A stretch of 64,000 nucleotides of DNA from an uncultured Planctomycetales bacterium. Lineage in GTDB: Bacteria; Omnitrophota; Gorgyraeia; Gygaellales; Profunditerraquicolaceae. Each line of letters opens with the position of its first letter. Position 1 is the stretch's first letter. A model generated the notes under the pieces. The model did not search any database and was not told where the DNA came from. It saw only the letters and a list, made by a program, of their open reading frames with translations. This document shows positions 7,980 through 42,936 of this stretch, one piece after another. Where the stretch lies: assembly GCA_964603585.1 (NCBI GenBank), contig CAZRVK010000002.1, positions 243,561-307,560 of the forward strand, given 5' to 3'. The position numbers and the translations under genes were made by a program.

Positions 7980-8051
7980 GGCGACGTAGCCAAGTGGCAA
8001 GGCAGTTGTCTGCAAAACAACTATACAGCGGTTCGAATCCGCTCGTCGCCT
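7980..8051 (+). tRNA. tRNA-Cys(GCA)
   Basis: Cloverleaf drawn by hand: acceptor GGCGACG/CGTCGCC, 3-bp D stem, anticodon stem GTTGT/ACAAC with loop CTGCAAA, T arm AGCGG-TTCGAAT-CCGCT. Confidence 0.8.
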
Positions 8052-8145
8052 TGAATATTTCACGCGCGATTTTCTGCCGCCTCTCAAATCGCCGGCGGCA
8101 GATTTTAAAATTGCGGTTTCGCCGGAGCAAGATCATTGTGCTCGA

Positions 8146-8228
8146 GGGCAAGTGGTGGAATGGCATACACGAAGGACTTAAAATCCTTTGGCCGTAAGGT
8201 CGTGAGGGTTCAACTCCCTCCTTGCCCA
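8146..8228 (+). tRNA. tRNA-Leu(TAA), class II with long variable arm
   Basis: Acceptor GGGCAAG/CTTGCCC, anticodon stem AAGGA/TCCTT with loop CTTAAAA, long extra arm, T arm GAGGG-TTCAACT-CCCTC; CCA not encoded. Confidence 0.75.
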
Positions 8229-8306
8229 TGAATTGGCTCATGGCTTATAGTAAAGTTTTTACTATGAGCTATGAGCTAAGAACCAAAACTCTATATTTTA
8301 AAGTTT

Positions 8307-8383
8307 GGGCTCATAGCTCAGTTGGTTAGAGCGTTGCGTTGACATCGCAAAGGTCTGAGGTTCAAGTCCTCATGGGCCCACCA
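8307..8383 (+). tRNA. tRNA-Val(GAC)
   Basis: GGGCTCATAGCTCAGTTGGTTAGAGC...TTGCG-TTGACAT-CGCAA...GAGGTTCAAGTCCTCATGGGCCCACCA; CCA encoded. Confidence 0.8.
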
Positions 8384-31936: not shown

Positions 31937-32472
31937 TGGTCGAAAAAATTATTATTGCCGGGGCTGGGGGGCAGGGGATCATGCTTTTAGGCAAGATCCT
32001 TTCGGCGGCGGCGATGGAAGAAGGCAAATATGTGACCTGGTTGCCGGCTTATGGGGCAGAGGTGCGCGGAGGCGCGGCTTATTGTATGGTGGTAGTTTCG
32101 GATGAAGAGGTCGGTTCCCCGTATATCGATAAAGCCGATACTTTGATAATTATGAATGCCCCGTCTTTTGTCAAGTTCAAGAACAGGATAAAACATAACG
32201 GCCTTTTACTTTTAAATAGCTCATTAATAGATATACAAAACAAAAAAAATGTTTTAGAATATCCGTTTACCGACATTGCCGAAAGCCTGGGTAATGGCAA
32301 GATCGCCAATATGATAGCCTTGGGCTGTTATTTATCCGGGCGCGGAACGGTCAAAGTCAAAAGTGCGCTTGCAGCAATCAAAGAAAACGCCCCTGCCGAT
32401 AAAAAAGGTTTGGTAGGTATTAATCAGCAGGCGCTTATGAGAGGAGTGGGTTTAACGAATGGTAAGAGTTAG
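31936..32472 (+). CDS. korC: 2-oxoacid:ferredoxin oxidoreductase gamma subunit
   Basis: IIAGAGGQGIMLLGKIL POR_gamma motif. Confidence 0.8.
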   Translation: MVEKIIIAGAGGQGIMLLGKILSAAAMEEGKYVTWLPAYGAEVRGGAAYCMVVVSDEEVGSPYIDKADTLIIMNAPSFVKFKNRIKHNGLLLLNSSLIDIQNKKNVLEYPFTDIAESLGNGKIANMIALGCYLSGRGTVKVKSALAAIKENAPADKKGLVGINQQALMRGVGLTNGKS

Positions 32473-33754
32473 ATTTGCCCCCAGCCCTACGGGGTATTTG
32501 CATATCGGGGGCGGCCGTACCGCGCTTTTTAATTGGCTGTATGCCCAATCCAAGCAGGGGAAAATGATCCTAAGGATCGAGGATACGGATCAGCAGCGTT
32601 CCAGGCAGGAATATGTCGACGAAATTTTGTATAGTTTAAAATGGCTGGGGTTTAATTGGGACGAGATCTATTATCAAAGCCAGCGTTTTAAGATTTACCG
32701 GGAATACGCGGATAAGCTGCTTAAAGAAGGCAAGGCCTATATTGAAAAATCACCCGAAGGCAAAGAGGCGGTGATCTTTAAGGTTACGCCGCAGAAGATT
32801 TTAGTTCAAGATCTGATCCGCGGGGAGATCGCGTTTGACTCTTCGGTGATCAAAGACCAGGTTTTGATTAAATCCGACGGCACCGCAACTTACAATTTTG
32901 CCTGTGTCGTAGATGATGCGACCATGGATATTACGCATATTATCCGCGGGGATGACCATATTTCCAATACTCCAAAACAAGTGCTTTTATATGAGGCGAT
33001 GGGTTTTAAGCTTCCGGAGTTTGCTCACCTGCCGCTTATTATGGGGGTTGACGGAGGGCGCCTTTCCAAGAGGACAGGGGCTACGGCGATATCCGATTAC
33101 CGAAAGATGGGTTTTCTTGCAGAGGCATTAGTGAACTATTTATTGCTTTTAAGCTGGGCCCCGGGTGGCAACCGGGAGGTAATTGATATCCAGGAGGCAA
33201 TCAAGATCTTCGATATTAAGAATATCAATAAAACCTCCGCGGCATTTGATCTGAAGAAATTAGAATGGATGAATAACCAGTATTTAAAGAAAACCGATGC
33301 GGAAAAATTACTCGAAGAAGTTATCCCTTTGTTAGAGGCGAAGCAATATATCGCGCGGGATAATTTTGATAGAGATTATTTAATTTCTCTGGTAAAATTA
33401 TTCCAAGGCAGGCTGACGACCATAAACGATTTCCCGGATTGGGCAGATTTCTTTTTCTTAAAGGATATTTCCATAGACCCGGCGGCTGCGCAGAAACATT
33501 TAAGCGGAGATCTCTCTAAAGAATTCGGACTTTTTATTCAAAGGCTGGAGCAATTGGAAAAATTCGATATTGTAACTATTGAAGAAGCCTTTAGGGAAAT
33601 GGTAAAACAGCTGAATTTAGAAGCCAAGGTCTTGATCCATCCTATCCGTGTGGCTTTAACCGGTAAAACCATTGGCCCGGGCCTGTTTGAGGTGATATAC
33701 TATTTAGGAAAAGAACGCACCATTGAGAGGTTAAGGAAGGTCATTAAAAACTAA
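32459..33754 (+). CDS. gltX: glutamate--tRNA ligase (short form, 431 aa)
   Basis: RFAPSPTGYLHIGGGRTALFNW HIGH region, LSKR (KMSKS-like) motif. Confidence 0.85.
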   Translation: MVRVRFAPSPTGYLHIGGGRTALFNWLYAQSKQGKMILRIEDTDQQRSRQEYVDEILYSLKWLGFNWDEIYYQSQRFKIYREYADKLLKEGKAYIEKSPEGKEAVIFKVTPQKILVQDLIRGEIAFDSSVIKDQVLIKSDGTATYNFACVVDDATMDITHIIRGDDHISNTPKQVLLYEAMGFKLPEFAHLPLIMGVDGGRLSKRTGATAISDYRKMGFLAEALVNYLLLLSWAPGGNREVIDIQEAIKIFDIKNINKTSAAFDLKKLEWMNNQYLKKTDAEKLLEEVIPLLEAKQYIARDNFDRDYLISLVKLFQGRLTTINDFPDWADFFFLKDISIDPAAAQKHLSGDLSKEFGLFIQRLEQLEKFDIVTIEEAFREMVKQLNLEAKVLIHPIRVALTGKTIGPGLFEVIYYLGKERTIERLRKVIKN

Positions 33755-33763
33755 GGAGCAGAC

Positions 33764-33946
33764 ATGGTAAAAACAGTTGTGTTATGCGTTATGCTGGGTT
33801 TTTTAGTCTGTTTATCCGGTTGTGAAACTACAGCTGGCGCCGCCTCCGGCCTGGCCTATACAATTGAAGGCGCAGGGAAAGACACAGTCAACATTTTCGG
33901 GGCTCTCTCTGGGATAGATAGCTGGATGCGCAAGAACCTCTGGTAA
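33764..33946 (+). CDS. small lipoprotein (entericidin-like?)
   Basis: 60 aa; signal plus lipobox LSGC, Gly/Ala-rich mature part. Confidence 0.5.
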   Translation: MVKTVVLCVMLGFLVCLSGCETTAGAASGLAYTIEGAGKDTVNIFGALSGIDSWMRKNLW

Positions 33947-33960
33947 ATCAATTACTTTAT

Positions 33961-34363
33961 TGCCCTGTCGTCTAATCGGTAGGACTTCAGATTCTGCCGT
34001 GAACCAAACAAACCACTTCGTTGTTGGTTCACGGCAGCCATGAACCGAACGAGCAGGCGAAAAAGGCAAAGCGAGTTCTGGTTCATGGCTGGACTACCAA
34101 GCAAGATGTATTTCACATACATTTTATGGAGTAAGCAGAGTAAGAAGTTTTATATTGGATTTACAGCGGACCTGATAAGAAGAGTTGATGAACATAAGAG
34201 AGGATGTGTATATTCTACTCAACGGGTGATTAATCCGGAACTTGTTTTTTACGAAGCGTTTCTTTCGGAAAGCGATGCGAGAAGGCGCGAAGGATATTTT
34301 AAGACAAGCAAGGGAAAGAAGGCGTTGAGAATAATGTTACGGGATACCCTATTTGAATAATTT
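33961..34363 (+). repeat. tandem repeat unit 1: tRNA-Gln 5' half (nt 1-36) + two hairpins + GIY-YIG gene
   Basis: 403-bp unit identical to 34364-34766 by eye, ORFs identical per track. First 36 nt equal positions 1-36 of the downstream intact tRNA-Gln and diverge exactly after anticodon CTG. Confidence 0.85.
34106..34360 (+). CDS. GIY-YIG nuclease-family protein (YhbQ/UPF0213-like), copy 1
   Basis: MYFTYILWSKQSKKFYIGFTADLIRRVDEHKRG...ELVFYEAF...RRREGYFKTSKGKKALRIML: GIY..YIG, Arg and Glu motif order. Start ambiguous; ORF track start is 34040. Confidence 0.7.
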   Translation: MYFTYILWSKQSKKFYIGFTADLIRRVDEHKRGCVYSTQRVINPELVFYEAFLSESDARRREGYFKTSKGKKALRIMLRDTLFE

Positions 34364-34766
34364 TGCCCTGTCGTCTAATCGGTAGGACTTCAGATTCTGC
34401 CGTGAACCAAACAAACCACTTCGTTGTTGGTTCACGGCAGCCATGAACCGAACGAGCAGGCGAAAAAGGCAAAGCGAGTTCTGGTTCATGGCTGGACTAC
34501 CAAGCAAGATGTATTTCACATACATTTTATGGAGTAAGCAGAGTAAGAAGTTTTATATTGGATTTACAGCGGACCTGATAAGAAGAGTTGATGAACATAA
34601 GAGAGGATGTGTATATTCTACTCAACGGGTGATTAATCCGGAACTTGTTTTTTACGAAGCGTTTCTTTCGGAAAGCGATGCGAGAAGGCGCGAAGGATAT
34701 TTTAAGACAAGCAAGGGAAAGAAGGCGTTGAGAATAATGTTACGGGATACCCTATTTGAATAATTT
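34364..34766 (+). repeat. tandem repeat unit 2 (identical copy)
   Basis: Same as unit 1; directly abuts position 1 of the intact tRNA-Gln. Confidence 0.85.
34509..34763 (+). CDS. GIY-YIG nuclease-family protein, copy 2 (identical)
   Basis: Identical protein to copy 1. Confidence 0.7.
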   Translation: MYFTYILWSKQSKKFYIGFTADLIRRVDEHKRGCVYSTQRVINPELVFYEAFLSESDARRREGYFKTSKGKKALRIMLRDTLFE

Positions 34767-36497
34767 TGCCCTGTCGTCTAATCGGTAGGACTTCAGATTC
34801 TGGATCTGACTATCATGGTTCGAGTCCATGCGGGGCAGCCATTGTTGACAACTATCCGAAACTCCGGATAGTGATGCAGTGGGAACAAGCGCCTTACAGT
34901 CTTCTGTAGGGCGCTTTTCCTTTGTAGAGGCTATTTCGCTAGGGAGGATGCCTTCAAGCGGCTCTTCGATATACATATTGATTACCAGCCTGTCGCTATA
35001 GACGTAAATGTCCTTGATCAGGGCATGTATAAGGCTTTTCTGGGCTTCCGGAGGGGCGTCTTCAAGGTGCTGTATGGCAAAGTTCATGCTGCGGTATACG
35101 AGCTCGCCGGAACAGGCGTTTATGCTGGCAACTCTCTTTTGCGCCTGCAGCTTGTCTATTTCGTCTTCCAGTTTTGCAATCTCCATTTCCAACTCATTCA
35201 TTTTGTCTTTATAAGTGGAGCCTTTGGTGACTGTGTTGCCCATGGCTAATTCCAGCAGTTTATTGGCTTGGAAGCGGAAGCCGTTTAGCTTTGTCTCTCT
35301 TTCTTTTAAGTCGGTCTCTATCTTTTCAAGCTTTGCCTGCGACTCAAGCATGGCGTCTCCCAGGGCCTTTATGATAATGCCCTTGTCCTCAGATGCCCGC
35401 CTAAAATAGTCGATTATAGCTTTGTCAAAAGTAGTTGCGGAGATGCGTGTTGCTTTGCATCCCAGAGCCTGCTTGGAGCGGCTGCACTCATAATAAAAAA
35501 ACTTTCTTCTGTCTCTACCGCCTGAAAAATTGCAGACCATATGGCTTCCGCAGTCGCCGCATCGGAGAATACCGGCGAGGAGGTATTCATAGAATCTTTC
35601 TTTCTGCACAAAGTTGTGGCCGGGAAGCTTGGCGCTCAATATTTTGTTGGCCCGCTCCCAGAGCTTCTCATCGACAATCGCCGGGTGATTGCCTTTGTGG
35701 TATTCTCCGCTGTATTGAATATAGCCTTTGTAAAAAGGATTTTTTAATATCCTTGAAATAACCTGCCTGCGCCATTCCTTGCCGTTTAGAGTTTTTAGCC
35801 CGCGCCTGTGAAGCTCAAGGCCTACCTGCGTAAGCGACCGGTTATCCGCGGCCATCTCCCAGATGATTTTAAGATGCGTAGTTATTTTTTCATCAGGAAC
35901 AATTTTATGCGGCTGGCGGCCGTTAGGAAGCGGCTCTCCGTCTGGTATAAGCTTATATCCATAAGGCAGCATCCCGCCGACCCATTTGCCCTGGCGCACT
36001 CTGGCAATAGCGGATGCTTTCACGCGCTCGCCGGTGAGCTCCCGCTCAAAGGCTGACAAAATCCCAAGTATGCCAATTACTACTCTACCTATGGCGGTTG
36101 AGCTGTCCAAGTTTTCTCTTACCGAGACGAAATCGATTTCCTTTTCTCTGAATAGATCAATAAGCCAGTAGAGGTCCCGGGTATTGCGGGTCAAGCGGTC
36201 AAGGCGGAAGAAGATTATTCCGTCAAATGGGGCGGTTTCTCTACGCACGCGGTCGATAATCATCTGGATGCCGGGCCGGTTGAGATCCTTGCCGGAATAT
36301 CCGTCATCGTCTATTCGGCCTTTTTTGCCTATCTTGGCAAGGTCATATCCAAAAGCGTCCAGCAGATTCTTGCAGTGATAGGCCTGGGAATCCAGGGTGG
36401 TAAAATCTCCCTGGGCCTGGTCATCAGTAGAGCAGCGGGTATAGATTACATAGCGTTTTTTGTTATTTGCATTATTTGTTTTGGCATTCATAATCAT
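34752..36497 (-). CDS. large serine recombinase (phage integrase)
   Basis: N-terminal resolvase catalytic domain (YVIYTRCSTDDQ), recombinase domain, zinc ribbon (CGDCGSHMVC...YYECSRS), coiled coil. Likely start MIMNAK at 36497; the track ORF extends to 36620. C-terminal codons overlap tRNA-Gln antisense. Confidence 0.8.
   Translation of the reverse strand: MIMNAKTNNANNKKRYVIYTRCSTDDQAQGDFTTLDSQAYHCKNLLDAFGYDLAKIGKKGRIDDDGYSGKDLNRPGIQMIIDRVRRETAPFDGIIFFRLDRLTRNTRDLYWLIDLFREKEIDFVSVRENLDSSTAIGRVVIGILGILSAFERELTGERVKASAIARVRQGKWVGGMLPYGYKLIPDGEPLPNGRQPHKIVPDEKITTHLKIIWEMAADNRSLTQVGLELHRRGLKTLNGKEWRRQVISRILKNPFYKGYIQYSGEYHKGNHPAIVDEKLWERANKILSAKLPGHNFVQKERFYEYLLAGILRCGDCGSHMVCNFSGGRDRRKFFYYECSRSKQALGCKATRISATTFDKAIIDYFRRASEDKGIIIKALGDAMLESQAKLEKIETDLKERETKLNGFRFQANKLLELAMGNTVTKGSTYKDKMNELEMEIAKLEDEIDKLQAQKRVASINACSGELVYRSMNFAIQHLEDAPPEAQKSLIHALIKDIYVYSDRLVINMYIEEPLEGILPSEIASTKEKRPTEDCKALVPTASLSGVSDSCQQWLPRMDSNHDSQIQNLKSYRLDDRAKLFK
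34767..34841 (+). tRNA. tRNA-Gln(CTG)
   Basis: U1-A72 acceptor TGCCCTG/CGGGGCA, D arm GTCT-AATCGGTAG-GGAC, anticodon stem TCAGA/TCTGA with loop TTCTGGA, T arm CATGG-TTCGAGT-CCATG, then GCCA. Confidence 0.8.
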
Positions 36498-36571
36498 AGA
36501 ATTCCTACCACATTTTAATGCAGGCATACGCCAGGCAGAAGATCTCCTTCTGCCTGGCGGCGCTAAAACAG

Positions 36572-36915
36572 TTATGCCTGGGCCTTCTGCTTTTTGCCTT
36601 TTCCCCAGCCAGCCTTCCATCTGGCCACTGCCCCGGAGACGATCTCGTTGATGCGCTCCTGGGTTGTGCCTTCCTTGAGGATCTCAACAAGCTCTTCTTT
36701 GTTGATTACCCGGAAGTTTTTGATGCCGCGCTCTTTGGCTTTAAGCATCAGCTCATGGCGCGACGACTCTTTGGCGGCTGATTTGCCGGCTTCAGGCTCT
36801 TTTGTAGCTTCTACCGGCGCGCTGGCTTTTTGAGTTTTTGATTTTTTCTTGCCGTAATGCTTGGCGTGGAGCTTGCTCAAAAACTCTCTGTCTTTCTTTT
36901 TCTGCTCAGCAGTCA
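36572..36915 (-). CDS. hypothetical phage protein with Rho_N/SAP-like motif
   Basis: Basic Lys-rich protein; LKAKERGIKNFRVINKEELVEIL resembles Rho N-terminal/SAP motif. AAGGAGG RBS supports a start at 36915. Confidence 0.4.
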
Positions 36916-39171: not shown

Positions 39172-40512
39172 ATGCCGAAGATTAACGTAAAACCGGACAT
39201 CCGCGACATCGCCATGTCCGAGATAAAGCCTGCGCCTTATAACCCAAGAGAGATTTCTGAGCAGGCGCTGATGGGCCTAAGGCACTCTCTGGAAAAGTTC
39301 GGGCTGGTGGATTTATTAGTGGTCAATAAGCGCACGATGCATATCATTTCAGGACATCAGCGCTATAAGGTCCTGCAGGCTGACGGCGCAAAGACTGTAA
39401 CTGCGATTATGGTTGACTTAGATGAGGCTTCGGAAATGGCCATGAATGTGACTCTAAACTCCCAGCAGATAGTAGGAGCCTGGACAGCTGCCCTAATTCC
39501 TATTTTAGAAAAGCTGCGCAAGGATATGCCGGAGGATTATTTGTCTTTAAGGCTTAAGGAGCTGCGGGAAGAGGTTTCTAAACTTGAGATGGAAAGCTTA
39601 GGAGCTGGCAAAACCCTGCCGGATGATCTGCCTGAACCGCCTCCTGAAACAATTACTAAAAAAGGCGACCTTTGGATCTTGGGCGAGCATAGGCTTTTGT
39701 GCGGAGATTCAACCAAGGAAGAGGATGTTTCAAGATTAATGGACGGTAAAACTGCCAAGCTCTTTGCGACTGATCCGCCGTATCTAGTGGACTACACCGG
39801 AACCGGCAGGCCGAAAGGCGACCACGGCCAAGGAGGCAAAGACTGGTCCGGGGTTTATCATGAGATTGACATTGAGGATGCAGAAAGCTTTTTAAGGGAT
39901 TTCCTAACCCGCGGCTTAAAGGTCATTGAAGCCAACACGCCGATTTATCTTTGGCACGCTTCAGCACGTATAGTTCTAATCAGAAAAATCTGCGACGAAT
40001 TAAATATCCTGGTGCATCAGCAGGTGATCTGGGTCAAGCCCTGCGCAGTCCTATCTTTTGCCTATTATCCCTGGAGGCATGAGCCGTGTTTACTATGCTG
40101 GCAGAAAGGCCATAAGCCGAATTACCGGCCTCTTGATAAGGCAATAGGCACGGTCTGGACAATAGATTTCCTAAGAACAGGAGATCCTTCAAATCCCGAA
40201 TACCACTCGGATGTCTGGGAGCTGGACTGGGAAGGCAAAAAAAGAAACACCGGGCTTTATCATCCCACAGTCAAGCCTACTGAAGTTTTTGCTATCCCAA
40301 TGCGCGTGCATACTTCAGTGGGTGATATTTGCTTTGAGCCATTTTCAGGATCAGGTTCTCAAATTATCGCAGCTGAACGCTTAAACCGTAGGTGCTTTGC
40401 TATGGAGATTGAGCCGGTGTTTGTTGACGTAGCCATACAAAGATGGACAGATTTTAGCGGCAAGGAAGCGGTCCGGGAAAGCGACGGTAAAACTTGGAGC
40501 GAACTTAAATGA
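39172..40512 (+). CDS. ParB-like nuclease domain / DNA methyltransferase fusion (beta-class N6A/N4C MTase)
   Basis: N-terminal ParBc motif (IISGHQRYKV); MTase motif IV DPPY (KLFATDPPYLVDY) precedes motif I (CFEPFSGSGSQ). Confidence 0.75.
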   Translation: MPKINVKPDIRDIAMSEIKPAPYNPREISEQALMGLRHSLEKFGLVDLLVVNKRTMHIISGHQRYKVLQADGAKTVTAIMVDLDEASEMAMNVTLNSQQIVGAWTAALIPILEKLRKDMPEDYLSLRLKELREEVSKLEMESLGAGKTLPDDLPEPPPETITKKGDLWILGEHRLLCGDSTKEEDVSRLMDGKTAKLFATDPPYLVDYTGTGRPKGDHGQGGKDWSGVYHEIDIEDAESFLRDFLTRGLKVIEANTPIYLWHASARIVLIRKICDELNILVHQQVIWVKPCAVLSFAYYPWRHEPCLLCWQKGHKPNYRPLDKAIGTVWTIDFLRTGDPSNPEYHSDVWELDWEGKKRNTGLYHPTVKPTEVFAIPMRVHTSVGDICFEPFSGSGSQIIAAERLNRRCFAMEIEPVFVDVAIQRWTDFSGKEAVRESDGKTWSELK

Positions 40513-41123
40513 CCGAACAAAGCCAGAACTTAGCCGAGCTTGCCCGCAAGAAACGCCACCTGCATTTGATTGAGAAGATTCAGGCAGGCAAGGCCTTAAC
40601 CAAGCAGGAGATTAGCGAGCTTGAGCAGTTTGAGGCAGAGCCTCTTCCGGCTACCATTGTTAAAACAATTGAAGAGGTAGCTAAGGTTATGGGCGTTACC
40701 TACCGAACTGTGCAGCGCTGGAAATTAGACGGCATGCCATCAACCAAGGAAGGTTTTTATGATCTTGAAGAAGTTAAAAGCTGGCATGTGCAAAAAAGCC
40801 AGCGTTTTAAGGAGCAGGACGGCCGGGCCTACTGGGATGAGAAGATCAGCCAGTATAAGGCAGAGCTTTTAAGGCTGGAAGTTAAAAAGGCAACCAGCGA
40901 AGTCATTCCTTACCGCGAGCATGTGGAAGTCGTGAGAGAGCAGGTAAGAGGAATTAAGATGGGTTTTTTAAGGCTTCCGCGCTACATCGCGCCAAAGTTA
41001 TACCAGCAGGAGCCCAAGGTTATCTGCGAAATCTTAGACAATGAAATCAGGTCTATCATTAATCAATTTGCCGGAGCTTACAATGCCGATAAGATTGACA
41101 AAGGAAAATCTAAAGACCATTAA
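40509..41123 (+). CDS. putative terminase small subunit (HTH)
   Basis: HTH (VAKVMGVTYRTVQRWKLDGMP); immediately upstream of and overlapping the terminase large subunit. Confidence 0.5.
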   Translation: MTEQSQNLAELARKKRHLHLIEKIQAGKALTKQEISELEQFEAEPLPATIVKTIEEVAKVMGVTYRTVQRWKLDGMPSTKEGFYDLEEVKSWHVQKSQRFKEQDGRAYWDEKISQYKAELLRLEVKKATSEVIPYREHVEVVREQVRGIKMGFLRLPRYIAPKLYQQEPKVICEILDNEIRSIINQFAGAYNADKIDKGKSKDH

Positions 41124-42936
41124 GCCCTACGCAGCTACAGAGTGGGCTTTGCCGGATAAGATAACTGTGAGCACCTGGGCAGACAGGTTCAGGCGCCTGG
41201 ATCCCAAGACTTCAGCTGAACCCGGGCAGTGGTCAACAAACAGAACGCCGTATCTAAAGGGGATTATGGATGCCTTTACGGATCCGCTGGTGGATGAAAT
41301 AACGGTCATGTCTGCTTCACAAGTGGGCAAAACCGAGGCAATTCTTAATATGCTGGGTTATATCATTGACCAGGACCCGGGGCCGACACTGATGGTCCTG
41401 CCAAGGGCAGATGATGCCAAGAGTGTATCCTCAAACCGCATAAAACCTATGATTGAAGCTTCTCCTGCGCTTTCCAGATATATCCCGCAAAATGCGGATG
41501 AGATTACCAAGCTTGAATACCACTTTGACCGGATGATTCTTTATTTTGCCGGATCCAACTCGCCGGCTGATTTAGCATCACGGCCTATCCGGTATTTATT
41601 CATGGATGAGGTGGATAAATATCCTAAGTTTTCAGGCAGGGAAGCAGATCCGATAAAGCTTGCTTCCGAGCGCCAAAAGACCTTCTGGAATAAAAAGACA
41701 GTCAAGGTCTCAACACCGACAACCCGCGAAGGTTATATTTCCCGCGAATACGAGAAATCAGACCAAAGGAGATTTTTTGTGCCCTGCCCGCACTGCGGAA
41801 AAATGCAGATTTTAGTCTTCGGCCAGATCCGCTGGCCCGCAGGAGAATCATCTCCTGAAAAAATCAAGAATGACCGGCTTGCCTGGTATGAATGCCTGCA
41901 TTGCAAGCAGCACATTGAAGATTCCCAGAAGCCTAAGATGATGCTGGGAGGGGAGTGGGTGCCTGACAGGAAAGAGCCGAATAAGAACCGAGGTTTTTGC
42001 ATCAGTTCTCTATACTCGCCTTGGCTTACCTGGAGCGATATCGCTTCAGAGTTCTTAAAGTCAAAGGATTACATTGAGCTTTTGATGAACTTTGTTAATT
42101 CCTGGCTGGCGCAGGTCTGGGAGGAAAAAATTGAGGAAACCACAGTTGATAAGGTGAGGAATCTTGCCCGGGATTATGACGAAGGGTTTGTGCCGGATGA
42201 GGTTTTGGTTTTAACTGCCGGAGTGGATGTGCAAAAGGATCACTTCAATTTTGTTATCCGCGGCTGGGGTTATTACGAAGAGTCCTGGCTTATCCGCGCA
42301 GCAGAAGTTGAATATTGGGAAGATATAATTGATGTCCTCTTCAAAACCGAATATAAACGCTTAACCTCGGCAGAAACCCTTCCGGTTTATATGTCCTGCA
42401 TAGACTCAGGATTTAAGACTGATGAAGTGTACCGCTTTTGCCGGCAGTGGCAGGATAAAACAAAGGCAATCAAAGGTGTTGAGGAGATAACCGGAGGCAG
42501 GTTTTACCGGGCAAATAAAATTGACATTAATTCCCGCACAGGCGCGGTTATCCCGCAAGGCTTAGTCCTTTGGCATTTAAATGTTTCGCAGTATAAAGAC
42601 AAAATCAACCGGTTGATTCATTCCAAGGATCCGGTCAAATGGCATATCTTTAAGAACCCAAGCGATGACTACCTGAATCAATTTGCCTCAGAGCATAAAG
42701 TCCTGCACAGAAACCGCACCACAGGAAAAGCAAAAGAAGTCTGGGAGAAGAAAAAAGAAGCAGCAGCGAATCATTTCCTGGATGCGGAGGTTTATGCCCT
42801 GGCAGCAGCGGATATCATCCGCGCCTTAAATATGCGCAAAGACGAAACAGCTGCGAAAGTTTATCAGCCTAAGGCCGAACCTTTTCTGCATTCAAGAGCG
42901 GGCTGGCTGCGGAAAAGGGAAAGGTCCTGGCTGTAA
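41084..42936 (+). CDS. terminase large subunit, lambda gpA family
   Basis: VMSASQVGKTE Walker A, RYLFMDEVDKYP Walker B, CPHCG...CLHCKQH zinc motif. Confidence 0.85.

Follow-up and report, generated by a model that had tools for sequence, protein, structure and literature searches.

Organization of the tRNA-Gln locus

The subject of this analysis is a small tandem structure at a tRNA-Gln(CTG) gene in contig CAZRVK010000002.1 of an Omnitrophota genome (assembly GCA_964603585.1), in which two identical units, each with a gene of the GIY-YIG nuclease family, precede the intact tRNA gene; it is probably a mobile element driven by its own nuclease. The locus was studied within a stretch of 64,000 nucleotides (nt), referred to below as the window, and all positions are window positions. 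A perfect 403-bp tandem duplication abutting an intact tRNA-Gln gene had been noticed in a preliminary description of this DNA, and Tandem Repeats Finder, ARAGORN and Rfam confirm it: between 33960 and 34802 the sequence repeats with a period of 403 bp in 2.1 copies, with 100% matches and zero indels. A 37-nt block, composed of a T and nt 1–36 of tRNA-Gln up to the anticodon CTG, is present in three copies, which start at 33960, 34363 and 34766, and the third block runs on as the complete tRNA-Gln(CTG) gene. Every 403-bp unit contains two hairpins, together designated module M, and a GIY-YIG open reading frame (ORF). The features of the locus are as follows:

33960..33996, + strand: displaced tRNA-Gln 5' fragment, copy 1 (T at position -1 plus nt 1–36, up to the anticodon CTG; identical to nt 1–36 of the intact tRNA)
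33997..34088, + strand: double-hairpin module M, copy 1 (inverted repeats; CTG on either side, middle CAG)
33997–34034, + strand: M copy 1, hairpin 1 (arms CCGTGAACC..GGTTCACGG)
34035–34037, + strand: M copy 1, middle CAG (reverse complement of the bordering CTG)
34038–34088, + strand: M copy 1, hairpin 2 (arms CCATGAACC..GGTTCATGG)
34089..34108, + strand: second CTG, doubtful tRNA-like stub and leader to the ATG (read from the sequence)
34109..34360, + strand, stop codon included: GIY-YIG nuclease ORF, copy 1 (84 aa, MYFTYILWSK...; PF01541)
34363..34399, + strand: tRNA-Gln 5' fragment, copy 2 (identical 37-nt block)
34400..34491, + strand: double-hairpin module M, copy 2 (inverted repeats, from the module table)
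34512..34763, + strand: GIY-YIG nuclease ORF, copy 2 (identical to copy 1)
34767..34841, + strand: intact tRNA-Gln(CTG) (ARAGORN; Rfam RF00005, 57 bits; its first 36 nt are the third repeat copy)
34887..34916, + strand: terminator-like hairpin 3' of the tRNA, likely the end of the tRNA/element transcript
34752..36620, - strand: large serine recombinase (prophage integrase), given for context only and lying outside the element (Pfam Resolvase, Recombinase and Zn_ribbon_recom; PHROG integrase, E 1e-107)

Each unit is flanked by the direct repeat of tRNA nt 1–36, whereby the tRNA gene is preserved in full on the downstream side. The units had been described as beginning with the 5' half of the tRNA; the extent of that piece, nt 1–36 up to the anticodon CTG, holds, but it is not a clean half, since CTG recurs past the hairpins. 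After this second CTG the window has only GA in common with the tRNA (nt 37–38), and L083, a strain of 96% identity, has GAT. The second CTG and the few tRNA-like bases beyond the hairpins make the upstream piece a tRNA interrupted by M and then truncated. The ORF and the tRNA probably share one transcript from the original tRNA promoter; a scan for sigma-70 promoters upstream of the first tRNA fragment yielded nothing useful.

The GIY-YIG protein

The ORF matches the Pfam GIY-YIG family PF01541 with an E value of 8.8e-12 and 45.6 bits against a cut-off of 22.6. The annotated product in the window has 91 aa and its start lies within hairpin 2; an exact look-up of this product returned no record. 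In an alignment to 36 homologues the latter begin at an equivalent MY(Y/F) position, and the true ORF is most likely that of 84 aa, starting at the ATG at 34109 (34512 in copy 2). Its single domain comprises residues 1–71 of the 84-aa protein (23–93 of the 106-aa ORF). Across 37 homologues Y16, G18, R26, H30, E50 and E62 are invariant and Y5 is nearly so, and by analogy with other GIY-YIG proteins these motif residues would have catalytic roles. The closest solved structures are those of the UPF0213 proteins BH0048 (1ZG2, E 1.7e-12) and EF2693 (1YWL, E 1.8e-11), followed by SLX1 entries with E values from 1.6e-4 to 4e-3, while with the group I intron endonuclease model, for which the cut-off is 56 bits, the score is only 19 bits (E 0.001). 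As judged from these similarities, the protein belongs to the UPF0213/Slx1-like branch and not to the classical homing-endonuclease branch, and the link first drawn to homing nucleases needs to be qualified accordingly. The subfamily is set apart by a KTSKGK-type C-terminal motif and by its tRNA/hairpin context. The ratio of nonsynonymous to synonymous polymorphism (pN/pS) is 0.08–0.21 in nine close ORF pairs, which indicates that the ORF is under purifying selection.

The protein is a predicted structure-specific nuclease. Being a bare catalytic domain, it would owe the choice of its target to DNA structure, to oligomerisation on the symmetric module, or to homology. Gene callers extend ORFs of this kind into hairpin or tRNA sequence, as was seen for P0001, P0016 and P0021: in P0021 the N-terminus is a translated tRNA T arm (..RGFESY..), and in P0016 the C-terminus is a translated D arm. 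Likewise, tRNA finders may report fragments at such loci.

Distribution of the family and its insertion sites

A 90%-clustered protein collection contains the 36 homologues, at 41–71% identity; 549 relatives were confirmed in species-representative genomes, and a profile search at E<=1e-10 extends the family to 6,017 representatives. The counts of loci in this paragraph refer to the best 80 of the 549 relatives. A tRNA gene of the same strand is directly adjacent to the ORF in 65 of the 80, either starting 0–30 nt past the stop codon (or overlapping it) or ending 50–350 nt before the start; the other 15 show mostly tRNA remnants or N-masked tRNAs at equivalent places. In about 30 loci the order is that of the window, with a tRNA 5' fragment followed by the double hairpin, the ORF and the intact tRNA. 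Loci with the tRNA on the downstream side have a copy of the tRNA 5' part 70–125 nt upstream of the ORF, and the unit length among relatives is 330–420 bp. In loci with the tRNA on the upstream side, M starts at the 3' end of the tRNA, and the first CC(A) of M overlaps the CCA or the discriminator. The named hosts include Omnitrophota, many Patescibacteria, Planctomycetota (one complete chromosome), Nitrospirota, Verrucomicrobiota and gammaproteobacterial bins; the family is found mainly in Omnitrophota, Patescibacteria and Planctomycetota, as well as in other phyla, and lives beside or inside tRNA genes.

The upstream tRNA copy ends at one of several positions, listed with the tRNA isotype and the loci:

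nt 35–37, through the anticodon: Gln, Leu; L001, L002, L003, L005, L031, L039, L052, L059, L076 and others
nt 31–33: Gln, Glu; L004, L006
nt 12: mostly Glu; L019, L020, L022, L038, L041, L067, L068
nt 21: Leu; L023, L045, L073
about nt 55–57, T loop: Gln, Glu; L015, L016, L042

M is accordingly located in the D, anticodon or T loop of the cloverleaf, or at the tRNA 3' end. An element targeted to the anticodon, as originally suggested for the window, is not what the family shows: relatives sit after nt 12, 21, 31, 36 and approximately 57, at the 3' end, and once, in L054, at the stop codon TAA of a protein gene. ORF clades track the tRNA isotype, and the insertion position varies inside clades. 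What did find support is the notion of a small mobile GIY-YIG element residing in a tRNA gene that is kept intact, as this architecture recurs at Gln, Leu, Glu and other tRNAs.

Three loci of related but divergent structure are worth mentioning. In L018 (1740–2345), from Omnitrophota, gltX lies upstream as in the window and the ORF directly precedes tRNA-Gln, with neither M nor a tRNA fragment; this is either a stripped-down or an ancestral arrangement. In L013 (1722–1995) a tandem duplication, with units of about 128 nt, affects the hairpin-bearing spacer that separates tRNA-Glu from the ORF. L050 (1646–1870 and 2249–2480) carries two tRNA-Met genes, each followed by a GC-rich insert of about 110–125 nt and a repeat of tRNA nt 58–76; these inserts look like another, ORF-less kind of T-loop insertion, with the tRNA 3' end duplicated.

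The double-hairpin module

An inverted-repeat search identified in each unit of the window a first hairpin, CTGCCGTGAACCA...TGGTTCACGGCAG, and a second one, CAGCCATGAACC...GGTTCATGGCTG. The folding z scores of M from the window versus shuffled sequences are -5.8 as RNA and -6.6 and -6.7 as DNA on the two strands. With a simple finder 59 double-hairpin modules were detected in 81 loci, against 0–1 in each of 20 shuffles; this shuffle control replaced a formal covariation test, which would be circular because the finder demands complementarity. The arms follow the pattern CCnnnnACC / GGTnnnnGG and the loops are from 4 to 50 nt long. The four inner bases of the arms vary among elements and between hairpin 1 and hairpin 2, each pairing with its own partner (a descriptive observation, as the finder required complementarity); it is pairing that is conserved in the arms, not one fixed sequence.

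The spacers of the module obey the rule X-hairpin 1-rc(X)-hairpin 2-X, where rc(X) is the reverse complement of X, and the rule is true on both sides in 26 of the 38 modules whose middle is non-empty. Anticodon-loop sets are CTG/CAG/CTG (the window), TTG/CAA/TTG, CAG/CTG/CAG, CA/TG/CA, TAA/TTA/TAA and TA/TA/TA, and the T-loop set is CG/CG/CG. Sites in the D arm, in the D loop and at the 3' end have an empty X, with hairpin 1 directly adjoining hairpin 2. The insertion in the protein gene of L054 keeps the rule as well. Among the exceptions are L010, with CTG/CAA/CTG, whose middle would remember a TTG host, and one module of L061, with CTG/CAG/TTG. M alone was also compared with foldback elements and those resembling miniature inverted-repeat transposable elements (MITE-like); the ends of M are inverted repeats and X (0–3 nt) is duplicated, whereas copies free of an ORF are confined to tRNA remnants, as described below.

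The symmetry extends to the whole module. Joining the ends of the window module gives GGTTCATGG-CTG-CCGTGAACC, whose reverse complement is exactly the middle, GGTTCACGG-CAG-CCATGAACC. Hairpin 2 is a mirror image of hairpin 1: of 37 modules, 36 have A as the first base of loop 1 and 34 have T as the last base of loop 2, and loop 2 is similar to the reverse complement of loop 1 (mean z 2.2). M is therefore dyad-symmetric, and the same pair of structures forms on both DNA strands. Mismatches in the stems are balanced (17 C:A versus 13 T:G), which by itself counts weakly against RNA-only selection on the hairpins; dyad symmetry and mismatch balance taken together favour an action of M at the DNA level, as a cruciform or as hairpins seen by a symmetric enzyme, over an RNA-only role.

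Downstream of the second X most relatives retain 3–5 nt of the tRNA, followed by a leader of 15–35 nt to the ATG. The conserved unit is the double hairpin, a short stub and the ORF, and not hairpins, GIY-YIG gene and tRNA nt 1–36 as first proposed. Copies of M without an ORF are present in L052, L058 and L064, always within tRNA remnants adjoining an element. The possibility that M is a tRNA intron was considered and rejected: Rfam shows only tRNA at the locus and no intron family, and removal of M together with X in silico from the 59 modules gave no credible full tRNA, only two poor chimeras.

Evidence for mobility

Comparison of the tRNA-Gln locus among genomes had been suggested from the outset, and it revealed identical tRNA-Gln genes with and without the element, in 0 or 1 unit. 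Ten metagenome contigs hold an identical 58-nt stretch of tRNA-Gln: six are without the element, two have one unit and one has a 3'-end variant. The single units, in L089 (a unit of 406 bp) and L093, are located at 36/37, and the 3'-end variant is that of L091. L086 and L092, which match the integrase side of the window at 90–93% identity, are without the element. In one genome elements occupy two different tRNAs, Glu (L042) and Leu (L055). Arrays of dead pieces, each composed of a stub (6–8 nt), M and a tRNA 3' half, lie downstream of the intact tRNA in L064 (2340–2700), L052 (2362–2510) and L058 (2334–2600). Some of these arrays have a second module in the T loop, and the displaced 3' half in L052 is from a tRNA-Leu different from the intact gene. 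Finally, the element lies at most 450 nt from a contig end in 11 of 80 loci, 4.2 being expected. In the window the upstream tRNA copy is disrupted by M, while an intact tRNA gene is regenerated right beside the ORF.

The unit does not conform to the usual types of small mobile DNA. It does not qualify as a recombinase-driven integrative element, as the 403-bp unit encodes the GIY-YIG ORF only and the neighbouring serine integrase is that of the prophage. Nor does it qualify as IS200/IS605, or as repetitive extragenic palindromes (REP) with their REP-associated tyrosine transposase (RAYT), since no HUH (Y1) transposase ORF is present in the unit and its sole Pfam domain is GIY-YIG. A phage-borne homing endonuclease gene is not supported, the protein having no relatives among the viral contigs searched and only weak PHROG matches, confined to the N-terminal motif. 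A defence-system reading was also rejected, as no PADLOC family was matched.

Origin of the tRNA 5' part

The repeat formed by the fragment and the intact tRNA usually extends beyond tRNA nt 1 into host-specific flank, by 3–7 nt in about nine loci, by 11 nt in L008 and by 20 nt in L089; in the window the extension is 1 nt and uninformative. At least at some loci, therefore, resident DNA was duplicated in place, and the claim that the element carries the tRNA 5' part as cargo is not clearly upheld, above all by L008 and L089. At other loci the upstream fragment and the intact tRNA differ, with 28/36 identical positions in L055, 31/55 in L015 and 50/55 in L016, and the stub of L055 pairs with the upstream fragment and not with the intact tRNA. 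This is the pattern that would be expected from imported foreign tRNA sequence, by analogy with the endonuclease ORFs of fungal mitochondria (PMC3630166). Both routes, target duplication and import of tRNA sequence, may occur.

The tandem copy

A second tandem case was found in an independent Omnitrophota genome: L061 carries a 100% identical tandem pair (359 bp, unit of 398 bp) at tRNA-Gln(CTG), and since its left unit is truncated at the upstream end it is not a simple assembly loop. Two diverged ORFs per locus are present in L019, L026, L037, L060 and L074. Among the 50%-identity representatives, P0038, P0039 and P0044 (157–214 aa) have two matched GIY-YIG stretches each, possibly read-through across tandem units elsewhere.

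Two independent Logan assemblies, SRR15237810 and SRR15237811, agree with the window at 100% identity and come to an end within the first repeat copy, at 33986 and 33989. The strain of 96% identity, known from a contig in the European Nucleotide Archive (ENA), has the lipoprotein gene, the 5' fragment, the hairpins and the ORF. These breaks, together with the element of that strain, indicate that the repeat is real in other read sets. The divergence of the element in that strain, about 2%, is similar to that of the flanks, so that the insertion predates the strain split and the 100% identical duplication is younger. The second copy is most likely the result of recombination between the 37-bp repeats, either unequal or break-induced. 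A single event followed by unequal crossover, mentioned at first as the alternative to two insertions, is fully viable. Two routes lead to the same product here, namely unequal recombination between the 37-bp repeats, or a new cut in the regenerated tRNA with out-of-register repair.

Proposed mechanism and alternative explanations

The locus is best explained, with reasonable though far from complete confidence, as two identical copies of about 367 bp of a nuclease-driven mobile mini-element, composed of M, a stub with leader and an 84-aa GIY-YIG gene, in tRNA-Gln(CTG) at 36/37, the second copy having been added later. The structure-specific nuclease would break the DNA of the tRNA gene at an exposed loop position with a stagger of 0–3 nt (X). 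The M-ORF unit would then be copied or joined in, with tRNA sequence serving as homology or as the duplicated segment, the latter spanning from just upstream of the tRNA to the cut, and the product would be tRNA 5' part-X-M-X-stub-ORF-intact tRNA. A further copy could follow by unequal recombination at the 37-bp repeats, or by re-cutting and out-of-register repair as for SegB, and tRNA homology would allow spread between genomes.

Several observations weigh against this explanation. An orthologous empty site of the same species was sought via the products of the neighbouring lipoprotein gene and gltX and none was found; that search gave two identical Logan contigs ending in the repeat and the one 96%-identical strain, which carries the element, and none of the ten contigs with the identical tRNA stretch is such a site. 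With no relatives of the protein in the viral contigs searched, no transfer vehicle was identified. No DNA-binding domain is joined to the nuclease domain, unlike in I-TevI and the Seg proteins, and DNA cutting by the 84-aa protein is predicted from its sequence. A classical homing endonuclease destroys its own site, whereas the regenerated intact tRNA beside the element would still be a target. Simple double-strand-break repair does not account for the internal rc(X), the 3–5-nt stubs or the graveyards of stub, M and 3' half in L052, L064 and L058. Moreover, the count of two units in the window rests on one assembly, and the taxon labels of some of the metagenome-assembled genomes may be unreliable. 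Several models for the origin of rc(X) can be drawn on paper, namely the exchange of sticky ends with a dumbbell, ends capped by hairpins, and one-turn copying on a small circular template; none of these models is claimed.

Among the other explanations, the integration, twice, of a 403-bp circular or linear element carrying tRNA nt 1–36, each time displacing the previous 5' half, fits the A-B-A-B-A structure, as well as the fragments of L055, L015 and L016 that differ from the intact tRNA and the pairing of the L055 stub with its upstream fragment, as expected for foreign tRNA sequence (cf. PMC3630166). It is nevertheless improbable: the unit is without a recombinase, the repeat reaches into host flank in L089, L008 and some nine further loci, relatives at the tRNA 3' end are without any tRNA duplicate, and two 100% identical integrations are indistinguishable from one followed by unequal crossover. 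Equally improbable is an assembly artefact, in which the assembler went twice through the repeat loop and the genome has one unit or some other number. A perfect 403-bp repeat does exceed the short-read length, the SRR15237810 and SRR15237811 assemblies break in its first copy, and the two copies are seen in one assembly only; however, any real repeat of the 37-nt block would break the Logan assemblies likewise, the L061 pair, with a left unit different at its upstream end, cannot be a simple loop artefact, and two matched GIY-YIG stretches are present in several of the 50%-identity representatives. Were there only one copy, the element and its family would still stand.

A host cassette that is not mobile, with the hairpins as RNA processing or stability signals, the protein as a tRNA-linked RNA or DNA maintenance factor and the partial tRNAs as by-products of recombination, is the least likely of the explanations considered. 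The strict co-orientation with the tRNA, the tight spacing from M to the ATG (15–35 nt), the purifying selection on the ORF and the noted fusion of an Slx1-like GIY-YIG domain to a TrmH tRNA methyltransferase (PMC1564403) would agree with it. Against it speak the patchy presence at identical tRNA genes, the many tRNA isotypes and positions, the non-tRNA insertion of L054 obeying the same X rule, the arrays of dead copies and the enrichment at contig ends. The stem mismatches, moreover, are without G·U bias, and the dyad symmetry of M, which gives the same structures on both strands, is not needed for an RNA-only role.

Beyond the nuclease-driven mini-element as such, it is suggested tentatively, as a possibility that is less likely than not but still substantial, that a previously unrecognised class of bacterial transposable elements is represented. 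These would be autonomous elements of about 0.37 kb whose sole protein, a minimal Slx1-like structure-specific nuclease, recognises the double hairpin (a cruciform or dumbbell) at the element end. They would insert into single-stranded loops of tRNA genes exposed when the DNA folds like the tRNA, with X, a microhomology of 0–3 nt, copied into the centre of M and a long target duplication of variable length keeping the tRNA alive, by a chemistry unlike homing, DDE/HUH transposition or site-specific recombination.

Relation to known systems

SegB, a GIY-YIG homing endonuclease encoded in the tRNA clusters of phages T4/T6, cleaves tRNA genes and brings about tandem amplification that depends on recombination (PMC2330249; PMC13096335). 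In phage T6 amplification of the segB-tRNA segment needs the nuclease activity of SegB as well as recombination functions, and truncation of the C-terminal region of SegB abolished its toxicity (PMC13096335). The likeness to the present family consists in a GIY-YIG gene among tRNA genes and in tandem amplification, which matches the pairs in the window and in L061. In contrast, SegB has a C-terminal region, which the 84-aa protein is without, is phage-borne, whereas no relative of the 84-aa protein was found in viral contigs, and is of the I-TevI-like branch, whereas the 84-aa protein matches UPF0213/SLX1; nor has a double-hairpin module or a partial tRNA copy been described for SegB.

Endonuclease ORFs of fungal mitochondria (LAGLIDADG or GIY-YIG) insert with a duplicated part of the gene, so that a working gene is kept and the native piece displaced, as in atp6 of Allomyces and atp6, atp9, cox2 and nad3 of Glomus (PMC3630166). 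These ORFs are organellar, have no hairpin module and target protein-coding genes, of which the 3' end is duplicated, whereas the window element has a tRNA target with the 5' end duplicated, and its family is bacterial and has the double hairpin. A further difference is that the duplicated part in this family is sometimes clearly host-derived. The element thus differs from SegB and from the mitochondrial ORFs in nuclease branch, minimal size, symmetric double hairpin with the X rule, bacterial chromosomal habitat and duplication on the 5' side.

With UPF0213 (YhbQ-type) and SLX1 proteins the element protein shares the best solved-structure matches and a size that fits a single GIY-YIG domain. 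SLX1 cuts branched DNA, with which a hairpin or cruciform module as substrate would be in keeping; it requires SLX4 and bears a zinc-finger domain. To our knowledge, the UPF0213 proteins have no assigned role in mobile elements and no described linkage to tRNA.

Phages and other elements that integrate into tRNA genes also leave a duplicated tRNA segment flanking the insert and a functional tRNA; their length is in the kilobase range, the duplicated part is usually the 3' one, and integration depends on a tyrosine or serine recombinase. The window unit, by comparison, is without a recombinase, duplicates the 5' part and is about 0.4 kb in length. Short paired palindromic modules are characteristic of REP and bacterial interspersed mosaic elements (BIME) with RAYT, of IS200/IS605 and of mitochondrial double-hairpin elements, and IS608 recognises its target or cleavage site through base pairs formed with its own sequence, a situation reminiscent of the internal rc(X). 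These systems use HUH (Y1) transposases or no known enzyme, and we know of none that is tied to tRNA loops and regenerates the tRNA, or that encodes a GIY-YIG protein.

A full-text literature search, which did not reach most subscription journals, returned neither an account of a double-hairpin/GIY-YIG element linked to tRNA genes in bacteria nor information on the function of YhbQ/UPF0213; apparently, this type of element has not been described so far. Should the interpretation be correct, these would be among the smallest known autonomous selfish elements, overlooked in thousands of genomes, with Patescibacteria and Omnitrophota as hosts in which they are particularly frequent. They would explain the genes for GIY-YIG nuclease family proteins beside tRNAs, the truncated tRNA fragments and the assembly breaks found there, and would be a bacterial chromosomal counterpart to the SegB-driven amplification of tRNA segments in phages. 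For the uncharacterised UPF0213 family, DNA forming hairpins or cruciforms at tRNA genes would become a substrate open to testing. The order X-hairpin-rc(X)-hairpin-X is a precise signature that any proposed chemistry of insertion must reproduce.

Neighbouring genes

Upstream of the tandem units lie gltX (32459–33754) and a small lipoprotein gene (33764–33946). The other tRNA cluster of the window, at 7980–8383 (Cys, Leu-TAA and Val), contains neither a hairpin module nor a GIY-YIG gene. On the other side, in the stretch 34752–64000 that runs to the window edge, a prophage starts directly after tRNA-Gln, the minus-strand frame of its integrase crossing the tRNA. Its integrase-plus-tRNA block is related at 90–93% identity to those of L086 and L092, where the upstream flanks are unrelated and the GIY-YIG element is absent. 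The prophage genes include a ParB-methyltransferase fusion (39172–40512), the terminase (41041–42936), the portal, the major head protein, the tape measure and a tail protein of 1206 aa. With a serine integrase and phage structural genes directly after the tRNA, it is plausible that tRNA-Gln is the attachment point of this prophage.

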